A stretch of DNA of 11,378 nt from a virus. Taxonomy: Duplodnaviria; Heunggongvirae; Uroviricota; Caudoviricetes. Made by a program: the position numbers. The stretch lies in IMG/VR virus record IMGVR_UViG_2681813225_000001, positions 1 through 11,378 of that record; one strand, given 5' to 3'. Below, piece after piece: positions 3,001 through 6,000 of this stretch (positions within the stretch are counted from its first letter, which is position 1; every line of letters begins with the position of its first letter).

Positions 3001-6000
3001 TGCGGCTCAGGACATATTCTTCCGAGTTGGTGAATTTGATGCCTTTTATCAACGAACCGTCACCAAGTAGAGCCCCAATAACCCAACCATCAAGGGGAAT
3101 ATTTTTACCAAAGTCTCCGGTCAAGGATGGCACTCTTATTCTTCCCTGATAACGTGTTTTTTGTAGTATCCCAGCCAGCGCATCAGTATCAACAACGCGT
3201 TTACCAGTAAATCTTGATGATGAAATTTCCCATAAGTGGTTGTCGGCACATTTCACGCTACGTCCGTCTTCAAAGGTGACTAAATATGTGAATTTCTTCC
3301 CTTGTGGGAAGACGCCAATTACCTCCGAAGGAAGCCCGTCTATTGACGCGATGCGATCGCCAATTTTGACTTCTCCGTGAGTAGTCCAGGTGCCATCTGC
3401 AAGTAAAATCCCTTCGCTTAGCGCCATTGCTTTCCCCATACCAGGACGAGCAGCGATTATCACCAGGTCTTCCGCGTTCATCCCTCCGGTGATGGCATCA
3501 AGTTCTTCGATTCCGGTCTTCAGGGTATCTGACTCTTCTCCGTTCCTCAGACGCCTGTCAAGCGTGTCAGTGTAGTCAGTGATGATTTCCCCTAACCGTA
3601 CAGGTTTAACCTCGTCACGGGGCTTTCTGATGGCTGAAAGACGCTTTACAAGTTCATCCATCGCCTGACTCGATGCGTCGATGGTTCCGCTCTGAATTGG
3701 TTCACGCATTTCATCCATGATTTCCAGCACCAGACGGCGGTGATAGTTATCCGCGACCATTCCGGCATATCCCTTCAGGTTTGCGGCACTCGGGCAGTTT
3801 TTGCTGGTCATCAGGATTGACGTGAAATGCTCCTCTCCGCACTCCTCGGCAACCATCAGCGCGTCGATTAGGTTTCTGTTTCGCGCCTGCTTACGGATAA
3901 CCTCGAAGGCTTTCCGGTAGAGCGGAATTGAAAACGCCTCCGGCTCCAGCGTTGCCAGAACGTCGCTGGCAGTTGGCGTTAATCCACCAATCAGCAGGCC
4001 ACCGATAACGCTCGCTTCGATATCCTGTCTCATGCAATCCCCCTGTCTGCAAACTTCCCTTCCCGGACTCCCGTTAACGAGTCTTCTCTCAGCAGGTAAT
4101 CAAAATCTGCCGTCCAGCCCGTGTCGTTGTCTCCGAAGTAAAACGGCTTGGCCTGATGTACAAACGCCCTGACATACGCTCTGAAACCGTCCACGTTTGG
4201 CGTTTTCAGTTGCGGGATGATTTTCTTCAGGCGGCGTTTGCGTTTCTCGTTGACCGCAACAGCGTGTGGAAGTCTGTCACCGACTTCGGTGTTGTAGGCG
4301 TTCAGGAAGGATTCGTAGTCGATTCGTTCTGCCTTGCGACGTTCAGGTTTAACCTGCCCATCGCCTCCCCCATTGGGGGGTAGGGGGGTATTATTTATAT
4401 TCTTGTTAATACCTTCTTGTTCATGATGTGCGGTTGTTTGTGCGGCTTCATGTGCGCTTTCATGTGCGGCATGTACTCTGAAAGCCGCGCCATTGCTGGC
4501 TTCGTCATGTGCGGCATCATGTGCGGTTGTTTGTGCGGCTTCATGTGCGGGTGAATCGTCCATTTTTTGAGCATATTCATGGTAATTTGTGATGGTAATC
4601 ACACGACCTTTTTGCTTCTCTCCATCAATGGTGATCATCCCCTCTTTCACAAAAACCTGAAGCATCCGCTCAACCTGATCGCGGCTTGCTGGCTTGCCAT
4701 GCCTGTCGCATAACTGAAGACCTAAATCAGCTGCTGTCACAACCAGTTGACCGGGTTGCAGATGCCATTCATGACCTTTGAAATTCGCTTTGTATGGCTT
4801 TCTGGCGGCATTCAGGAGAAGGTTTTCCCACAGGGTGCGAAGATAAACATCTTTCGCCCATGACTGTTTCAGAATGCTCCGGTACAACGGAATGTAACCA
4901 GTTTTCTGGTTCTCCATCCTGTTGCTCCTGCGCTCGTGTGCGGCGCTGAAATCGTAGATTTTTGCTGTATTGCTCATAACTACCTGCCTTGACGAAAGAC
5001 CTTAAGAACATCGTTAAACTGACTTACGGATATGTCTTCTTTGAGCAGCTTTTCCAGAAATGCGTTTGGAATGGACGTATATCCCTCCTCTTTTGGTAGA
5101 GACGGGAGCAACGCCCTCGCCTCAGCCTTCAGAAGCTCAGTTCTGGCAACTTTCACAAAAGAGATTTGAGTTCTTTCATCAATGGAACGAAGGAAGCGCA
5201 AACGCTTAGCTTCTTTGTGTGTATCAGGTGGATTAAAGCCTTTGTTTCGCATATAATTACCTCGTTGGATGTTGTTAAAATTCCATTTGTATTTGATCAG
5301 AACGCTCGGTCTTGCACACCGGGCGTTTTTTATTGGTGAGTCCATCAAGCGCATACTTAAAAGCCCTGCTAATCGGACTGATGTCTGATGCCATTCCGAA
5401 AGCACACAGGACCGAAGCAATAAACCTCCAGTCCGTTCTGCTTATCTTCGATTCATGACAGCCAATCATCTTTGCCAGACCGCGCTGGGTAAGCGTTGAC
5501 AGGTTGATGAGTAAATCTGTTTCTGCGCGATCAACGTCACGCTGGGATAGTTTGCTGTAACTTGTTCGTTCCATTTCTTAAGATTTCCAATAGTGAATAG
5601 TTAGTTGAAAGGTATGCGTGGAAACGCATATGGCCTTAGTTGGTCAGATATCTTGGGACTCGCTTTTCAGCGACGTAGGACGAATGTCCGTTGTTACAAA
5701 GAGCGGCTCCGCTTATTAAGCGGCTTTGTGCTCCGGCGGGAACACGTCATCAAGACTTACTTTTGCGCCTAACTTGTTTAGACACGCAACAAGAGCACGG
5801 CATGTTTTAAGGTCTGGGAAGCGACGACCAGATTCCCAATGTCCGATAGCTCCCTGTGTGCATCCAACTGCCTTAGCAAGTGTTGTTTGAGAGATATTCA
5901 GTGACTCTCGATATTTTCGTAGGTTGCTCATATGCCCTCCATAGTAACCACGAATAAAAAAATACAATATGTACTTCTCAAATACAAGTAAAAATACACA

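Follow-up and report, generated by a model that had tools for sequence, protein, structure and literature searches.

Two-hairpin nut sites with a GNRA tetraloop boxB in a lambdoid Shiga toxin phage of the VT2-Sakai type

The nut sites and the early genes of the window

The window analysed here, the whole 11,378-nucleotide (nt) stretch of the Caudoviricetes record IMGVR_UViG_2681813225_000001 from IMG/VR, contains nutL and nutR, the two antitermination signals of a lambdoid Shiga toxin (Stx) phage of the VT2-Sakai type, together with its N antiterminator gene. In both sites, a short hairpin occupies the spacer between boxA and the boxB hairpin. This two-hairpin layout is not new: it has already been described for phage H-19B, whose nutR is published as having two hairpins (PMC3526286). 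The window sites are H-19B-type two-hairpin nut sites which belong to a sister N/boxB class with a canonical GNRA tetraloop. They are composed of the following elements.

8311..8355, + strand: whole nutL site (boxA, AACAAC, spacer hairpin, UACG, boxB)
8311..8318, + strand: nutL boxA, GCTCTTTA as DNA and GCUCUUUA as RNA, rrn-type consensus
8319-8324, + strand: AACAAC of nutL, conserved 5' flank of the hairpin, read in the sequence
8325..8337, + strand: nutL spacer hairpin GUCGA/CUC/UCGAC, 5 bp and 3-nt loop (GTCGA 8325-8329, CTC 8330-8332, TCGAC 8333-8337), fold -3.5 kcal/mol
8338..8341, + strand: nutL UACG linker between the spacer hairpin and boxB
8342..8355, + strand: nutL boxB UGGCU/GAAA/AGCCA, 5 bp and GNRA tetraloop (TGGCT 8342-8346, GAAA 8347-8350, AGCCA 8351-8355), fold -6.3 kcal/mol; presumed binding site of the arginine-rich motif of N
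5660..5705, - strand: whole nutR site, between cro and cII
5698..5705, - strand: nutR boxA, CGCTCTTT as DNA and CGCUCUUU as RNA, read in the sequence
5697-5690, - strand: 8-base 5' flank of the nutR hairpin, GTAACAAC as DNA and GUAACAAC as RNA
5678..5689, - strand: nutR spacer hairpin GGAC/AUUC/GUCC, 4 bp and 4-nt loop (GGAC 5689-5686, ATTC 5685-5682, GTCC 5681-5678), fold -3.8 kcal/mol
5674..5677, - strand: nutR UACG linker
5660..5673, - strand: nutR boxB UCGCU/GAAA/AGCGA (TCGCT 5673-5669, GAAA 5668-5665, AGCGA 5664-5660), fold -5.7 kcal/mol

In both sites, the boxA consensus (C)GCUCUU(U)A (GGCUCUUUA at nutL, CGCUCUUUG at nutR) is present 5' of a boxB composed of a 5-bp stem and a GNRA-type loop. 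The order of elements given in a preliminary description of this DNA (boxA, AACAAC, a hairpin and a stem with a GAAA loop) stands as it was read, except that the TACGT placed between the hairpins is in fact the UACG linker followed by the first base of the boxB stem. The stem differences listed there are also present: the second boxB pair is G-C in nutL and C-G in nutR, and the spacer stems of the two sites have unrelated sequences. The sites share an 18-mer, TACGTNGCTGAAAAGCNA, which occurs twice in the window, once in each site, while 0.00 occurrences are expected (200 shuffles). A covariance model of the two hairpins, whose construction is given below, has only two matches in the window, nutL (8305-8358, 76.2 bits, E 8e-17) and nutR (5657-5710, 36.7 bits, E 1.3e-6). 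A 47-nt pattern with fixed spacing gave no match, because the distance between boxA and the hairpin differs by one base between the two sites.

The identification of the sites as nut sites is borne out by their positions relative to pL, N, cro and cII, and by the membership of N in the Pfam family N_peptide. The gene layout is that of the AP005153 annotation, mapped onto the window.

~8237-8264, rightward (+): promoter pL, mapped from AP005153
8454..8726, + strand: N antiterminator gene, 90 residues, N terminus MSRKTEFKGTAASRRRARRANLQSQ, Pfam N_peptide PF25694 (E 3.4e-32)
~5960-5988, leftward (-): promoter pR, mapped from AP005153
5716..5931, - strand: cro, mapped from AP005153
5275..5574, - strand: cII-like gene, downstream of nutR

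nutL follows the annotated pL by about 50 nt and precedes N by about 100 nt, and nutR starts 10 nt past the cro stop codon, upstream of cII; each site is on the transcribed strand of its interval (pL-N and cro-cII, respectively). The start of N is annotated at 8382 in some records; the ATG at 8454 is used here. According to AP005153, N is the first gene of the pL operon and is followed on the + strand by ea10, cIII, kil, gam and bet, in this order, while the - strand carries cro, the cII-like gene, O and P after pR. The central 3.4 kb of the window are 100% identical to Stx2a phage 981509 and 99.6-99.8% identical to many O157:H7 Stx phages, among which the Stx1 converting phage AP005153, Stx2 II, 1717, 2851 and YYZ-2008. 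The matched Stx phage records carry annotated cI, cro, cII, N, pL and pR.

Three other features of the region are worth describing. About 1.5 kb of inserted open reading frames, including window 7204-7725 (+), separates cI from the pL/oL region; they include a 173-residue hypothetical protein which is conserved in an IMG/VR contig, L044, discussed below. Between nutL and the N start codon, the N leader (8359-8460, +) is predicted to form a long imperfect stem of -39.3 kcal/mol (z -4.79; as stable in 0 of 200 shuffles), which is positioned like the hairpin that RNase III processes in the lambda N leader and that controls N translation. An Rfam search of the window (E up to 1) found no family over the nut sites, and its sole match is the cIII thermoregulator Lambda_thermo at 9834-9892 (+; 88.5 bits, E 5e-21).

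Comparative evidence for the two hairpins

The sites were compared with those of 80 IMG/VR loci which encode the same N, of 120 loci which match TACGNNGCTGA(N)AAAGC, and of HK97, POCJ13, Min27, NM-3, SPN9CC and P22 from GenBank. A comparison with phages carrying the same N had been proposed in the preliminary description; in these phages the nutL stem GUCGA/UCGAC is invariant while its loop varies (CUC, AUC, ACUC, ACAC, GCAC, with insertions and deletions), and GCTCTTT is kept across nutL homologues. In the wider family, unrelated stems are found at one position, between AAC or AAU and UACG. There are at least seven of them (GUCGA/UCGAC, GGAC/GUCC, GAUUC/GAAUC, GGCC/GGCC, GGUGA/UCACC, GGUGA/UUACC and GAAGG/CCUUC), in addition to the wobble variant GGGC/GUCC, and their loops are 3-9 nt long.

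The claim that the hairpins are selected was made from the two window sites, which is a thin basis, but it holds on 36 distinct sites. An anchor-based script, which is independent of any alignment, found UACG to be directly preceded by a hairpin of 4 bp or more in 49 of the 56 unique sites whose boxB can form a 5-bp stem, but in only 12 of the 67 matches that the pattern gave by chance. The covariance model was built from six gapless sequences and recovered 66 sites, of which 36 are distinct. In the alignment of these 36 sites, which was itself fitted to the model structure, 100% of the 326 cells pair, and double changes are observed at four of the five spacer-stem pairs and at two of the five boxB pairs (stem pairs 1 and 2). 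The alignment has a covariation score of 0.427; shuffled alignments score 0.098 +/- 0.016, none of 500 shuffles attains the observed value, and the score does not exceed 0.06 when the partners are slid. RNAalifold returns the same two hairpins from this alignment; pairs were not counted on a plain MAFFT alignment of 30 sites, in which the stems were split apart. All 36 sites retain the hairpin, its first pair is always G-C, and the AAC and UACG flanks are nearly invariant (35 of the 36 linkers are UACG, the remaining one is CACG). The hairpin is retained even where there is no boxA consensus, as in HK97/933W-type nutL and Salmonella-type nutR. The spacer hairpin is therefore real and conserved, and selection bears on the pairing, not on the stem sequence.

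The inverted repeats might instead act on DNA, as a protein-binding palindrome or a recombination site, or be products of chance or duplication. Indeed, they are only 4-5 bp long, and 18% of unrelated control sites have an abutting 4-bp hairpin. Such explanations are nevertheless very improbable in view of the presence of at least seven unrelated stems at a fixed position from boxB on the transcribed strand, and of the G-U pairs among them, which are workable only in RNA. A recent duplication of the nut sites can be dismissed, since the spacer stems of nutL and nutR have no sequence in common and belong to different lineages, each of which is also found in other phages. The compensatory mutations reportedly obtained in H-19B agree with a function in RNA.

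The folding energies are less informative. In the RNA folding that had been suggested as a check, the isolated hairpins are weak to moderate, and the folds of the 66-nt segments are no better than those of shuffled sequences (z -0.84 and -1.33). Thermodynamics by itself does not pick out the two hairpins, so that the case for the structure rests on the comparative data.

Relation to other antitermination sites and role of the spacer hairpin

The closest relative of the window nutR is that of H-19B. The supplement of PMC3526286 lists oligonucleotides antisense to the boxA, spacer and boxB of H-19B nutR, the sense strands of which are CATAAGTAACACCGCTATTTTCAC, CACAATGGACATTCGTCCTACG and TACGTCGCTGACAAAGCGAGTCCC, respectively. 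They reproduce GGACATTCGTCC-TACG-TCGCTGACAAAGCGA, and the nutR sequences of Min27 (933W-type) and HK97 are the same as these sense strands. The hairpin and linker of the window nutR, GGACAUUCGUCC-UACG, match H-19B exactly: over 16 bases (GGACATTCGTCCTACG), they coincide with the sense strand of oligonucleotide RS663 (CACAATGGACATTCGTCCTACG), and the boxB stem (UCGCU...AGCGA) and about 30 downstream bases are also identical. The nutR spacer hairpins of 933W-type phages and HK97 are likewise identical to that of the window. All have the same order of elements, (boxA), ACAAY, a short hairpin, UACG and a 5-bp boxB, and the spacer dyad symmetry is present at both nut sites of H-19B, as it is in the window.

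The differences concern boxB, nutL, boxA and N. The boxB of H-19B nutR is UCGCU GACAA AGCGA, from which the window nutR differs only by the absence of the C in the loop; the loop is thus a GACAA pentaloop in H-19B, 933W and HK97 and a GAAA tetraloop at both window sites. The nutL of the H-19B/HK97 type reads ACAAC GAUUC GAAUAU GAAUC UACG GCGCU GACAA AGCGC, with a GAUUC/GAAUC spacer stem where the window has GUCGA/UCGAC. The boxA of H-19B nutR is CGCUAUUU and H-19B/HK97 nutL has none, whereas both window sites have a consensus boxA. The H-19B/HK97 N is homologous to that of the window (40.9% identity), with which it shares the N-terminal pattern M-x-R-x-T-x-F-x-G and the C-terminal end, but the HK97-type protein has 127 residues and that of the window only 90, with a central deletion. 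The arginine-rich motif is SRSRRRERLKAKALAN in H-19B and AASRRRARRANLQ in the window, so the H-19B combination of a GACAA loop with the motif SRSRRRERLKAKA is absent from the window, where AASRRRARRANLQ goes with GAAA at both sites.

Two observations were made on SPN9CC (L086). Its nutL, about 130-70 nt upstream of N (+), keeps the GAUUC...GAAUC hairpin and UACG but has an aberrant boxB, GCUCCGUCAACGAGC, and in its nutR boxB (UCGCU GACAA GGCGA) the closing pair is U-G. The SPN9CC boxB may be a further variant or a decaying site.

The nut sites of lambda have the same positions as those of the window, after pL and before N, and after cro and before cII. Their elements are likewise boxA, a spacer, and a boxB in which a GNRA-type loop caps a 5-bp stem, and lambda N also has an N-terminal arginine-rich motif. 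However, the spacer of lambda nutR (CGCTCTTA CACATTCCA GCCCTGAAAAAGGGC) consists of nine unstructured bases without a hairpin, the boxB loop is a pentaloop (GAAAA or GAAGA), and lambda N has no detectable sequence similarity to the window N; a search of PDB sequences with the window N (E up to 10) matched no N chain. The leader of P22 pL is clearly homologous to that of the window up to and including boxA, the upper stem of P22 boxB (GCGCUGACAAAGCGC) is GCU/AGC as in the window, and the 24 C-terminal residues of P22 gp24 resemble those of the window N, but its arginine-rich motif is different and the P22 nut sites have 10-11 unstructured spacer bases, no spacer hairpin and a GACAA pentaloop. 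The spacer hairpin is thus foreign to the lambda layout, as the preliminary description had stated: neither lambda nor P22 has one. When window 8270-8320 (+) is aligned to the region of P22 (L207) upstream of gene 24, the similarity ends right after boxA: beyond this point the window has its spacer hairpin and tetraloop boxB in place of the corresponding P22 elements, which puts a mosaic joint within nutL.

The putL and putR elements of HK022 also consist of two adjacent stem-loops in early transcripts and promote antitermination. A put-like element, whose two stem-loops would themselves modify RNA polymerase with no phage protein taking part, would fit the presence of two adjacent stem-loops just downstream of the early promoters, and yet it is the least credible of the explanations considered here. 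HK022 put acts without N, lacks boxA and boxB and has much larger stems. The window, on the contrary, has an intact N gene with an arginine-rich motif directly downstream of nutL, a canonical boxA, a GNRA boxB, and hairpins of only 12-14 nt; moreover, the class of the N motif covaries with the boxB loop (see below), which implies recognition by a protein. The put-like and DNA-level palindrome readings were both rejected on the basis of the stem variety, the G-U pairs, the N gene and the presence of boxA and boxB.

The spacer hairpin of H-19B was studied by Neely and Friedman (2000, Mol Microbiol 38:1074), who reportedly noted that such dyad symmetries are not found in other nut sites, that a mutation in one arm inactivates NUT and that compensatory changes restore activity, while deletion of the dyad has little effect. 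A spacer hairpin that can be dispensed with, which the preliminary description had named among the observations that would refute it, is thus in essence what has reportedly been seen in H-19B. The stem-loop is said to have been named a "reducer", which brings the flanking sites closer. NusB, S10 and boxA are reportedly not required in H-19B. This independence of boxA need not apply to the window sites, because both carry a consensus boxA.

It is probable, in our judgment, that the window sites are the nutL and nutR of a Stx phage with a Sakai-type N, in which the extra hairpin is an H-19B-type "reducer" and the GNRA boxB is matched to the motif class of N. The make-up of the sites, their gene context, the conserved and covarying structure, the match of the nutR hairpin to H-19B and the motif/loop association are observed in the sequences, whereas we infer the binding partners, the reducer function in the window phage and the specificity switch discussed below. 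By homology with lambda and H-19B, boxA (GCUCUUU) would recruit NusB/S10 after transcription from pL or pR; the arginine-rich motif of N would bind the GAAA tetraloop hairpin of boxB, and NusA would bind the single-stranded flanks of the spacer, also by homology. N and the Nus factors together would convert RNA polymerase to a termination-resistant form. As a reducer, the hairpin would fold away 12-13 of the 23 spacer bases and so bring the AAC and UACG flanks, hence boxA and boxB, to within about 10-11 unpaired bases of each other. In the linear sequence of either site, 23 nt separate boxA from boxB; once the hairpin forms, 10 of these bases stay unpaired in nutL and 11 in nutR, compared to nine in lambda nutR, 11 in P22 nutL and 10 in P22 nutR. 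This similarity in unpaired length directly fits the reducer model.

Several points weigh against this interpretation. The loci were found partly through the boxB pattern and one N type, which makes the sample biased, and the pair counts depend on the fitted alignment mentioned above. At both sites, the minimum free energy (MFE) fold of the single sequence pairs boxA with the 3' arm of boxB, and this helix is about 2 kcal/mol better than the two hairpins. In contig L044, this N and the tetraloop nutL are joined to the N-terminal half of lambda cI, cro, nutR and cII, and the nutR has no spacer hairpin and a GAAAA loop. It is the nutR of lambda, since lambda cII is directly downstream; the joint lies inside cI, at L044 1715, equivalent to window 6292 (segments ~1050-1110, -, and 1412-2125, +). 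L044, either a naturally occurring hybrid or a chimera produced by assembly, is the one case in which motif class, boxB loop type and spacer hairpin do not go together. Lastly, the universal retention of the hairpin is unexplained if its deletion is tolerated: a passive reducer should sometimes be lost.

The MFE helix pairs 8310-8318 with 8346-8354 in nutL and 5706-5698 with 5669-5661 in nutR. It joins the 5' bases of boxA (N-GCU-C-UUU) to the complementary second half of boxB (AAA-AGC-N'), and the outermost pair is G-C in nutL and C-G in nutR. This helix was rejected as the functional fold: it is 84% paired on the 36-site alignment, nearly all of its columns are invariant, only one pair covaries, weakly, and it is not the fold returned by RNAalifold. 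The helix may be connected with the "alternative NUT RNA structures" named in the title of the H-19B paper of Neely and Friedman.

That title, the prediction of the helix as the MFE fold of both sites, and the protection by Rho alone of the nutR spacer of H-19B, with which the rut site overlaps (PMC3526286), would suit another role of the hairpin, that of a folding or insulation device. It would keep the spacer from mispairing with boxA or boxB, or from serving as a rut surface for Rho, and thereby steer boxB folding and the competition between N and Rho at nutR/tR1. This role seems improbable. The predicted alternative helix is compatible with the spacer hairpin, so the latter does not prevent it, and it is nearly devoid of covariation support. 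Furthermore, nutL also has a hairpin, although no tR1-like Rho terminator is documented there.

Another possibility, unlikely but less so than insulation, is that the hairpin and its flanks (AAC-G...C-UACG) form a positive recognition element, for example a docking site for NusA (S1-KH) or a second contact for N, which would aid the assembly of the complex and could make boxA/NusB less necessary. The conservation of the hairpin in all 36 sites, with its G-C first pair and nearly invariant flanks, and its persistence in the nutL of the HK97/933W type and the nutR of the Salmonella type, which have no boxA consensus, speak in its favor. In H-19B, N with NusA/NusG protects the nutR spacer and boxB, the spacer being protected from RNase H and RNase T1 (PMC3526286), and NusA binds lambda nut spacers (PMC2724277). 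Unlike a sequence-specific protein site, however, the element varies freely in stem sequence, loop sequence and loop length (3-9 nt), and the N systems of lambda and P22 function without a hairpin. The small effect reportedly seen upon deletion of the H-19B dyad also argues against a positive element.

N motif classes, boxB loops and significance

The window N is 100% identical to that of VT2-Sakai. Its N terminus carries the arginine run RRRARR, and alignment of the N termini upholds the earlier statement that its arginine-rich motif is distinct: it belongs to the class AASRRRARRA. Two classes can be distinguished. In the tetraloop class, N termini read ...G[ST][AS]A[SGT]RRR[AE]xRxx[LV]Q...; its members are the N proteins of the window, POCJ13, NM-3 and six IMG/VR loci (L100, L138, L143, L145, L159 and L171). 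In the pentaloop class (HK97, Min27 and SPN9CC), they read ...G[NT]SR[SA]RRRERLKAKALAN... and go with GACAA. The motif of the tetraloop class is two residues shorter. NM-3 has a tetraloop-class motif on an otherwise HK97-like N, and the arginine-rich motif therefore moves as a module.

The class of the motif is associated with the boxB loop. In 92 loci (nine distinct combinations), a tetraloop-class motif occurs with GNRA tetraloops at both nut sites, and in 13 loci (three combinations) a pentaloop-class motif (SRSRRRERLKAKA, H-19B/HK97 type) occurs with GACAA at both; these counts are biased towards one N type and one boxB pattern, but the concordance of the second site is not forced by the sampling. 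No discordance was found among the loci for which both nut sites were recovered. In POCJ13 nutL and one L171 site the loop is GCAA instead of GAAA, which is still a true GNRA tetraloop.

In the structure of the P22 N-boxB complex (PMC12550061), GACAA adopts a GNRA-like fold from which its C is extruded. The GAAA loop of the window is this GNRA-like fold minus the extruded base. In the epsilon34 genome paper, a divergent N terminus was suggested to imply "a novel BoxB specificity" (PMC2629481). The literature searched yielded no biochemical study of an N/boxB pair of the tetraloop class, and the way in which motif and loop classes go together is less well described than the hairpin layout.

A broader proposal is that the tetraloop boxB and the shortened motif constitute a distinct N-boxB specificity class, and that the AAC-hairpin-UACG unit has a role beyond spacer shortening, such as the docking of NusA; we consider the odds of it being right or wrong to be even. 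The class, with the motif G-[ST]-[AS]-A-[SGT]-RRR-[AE]-x-R-x-x-[LV]-Q, may differ from the pentaloop class by a one-base deletion in the loop and a two-residue deletion in the motif. If true, this would be a natural orthogonal N/boxB pair on an otherwise identical nutR scaffold.

N antitermination governs early gene expression in Stx phages and, via Q, affects Shiga toxin production. The N type of the window is that of VT2-Sakai and of many O157:H7 Stx2a phages. The comparative data leave the general view of nut function as it was, and provide broad evolutionary support for the "reducer" idea proposed for H-19B. A puzzle is that the hairpin, reportedly deletable, is kept in every family member found. 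The pairing of motif and loop classes on nearly identical nutR backgrounds is a natural system for the study of specificity switching between peptide and RNA, and could be a source of orthogonal N/boxB tethering pairs. The main interest that remains lies in this putative motif/loop specificity switch and in the unexplained universal retention of the hairpin.

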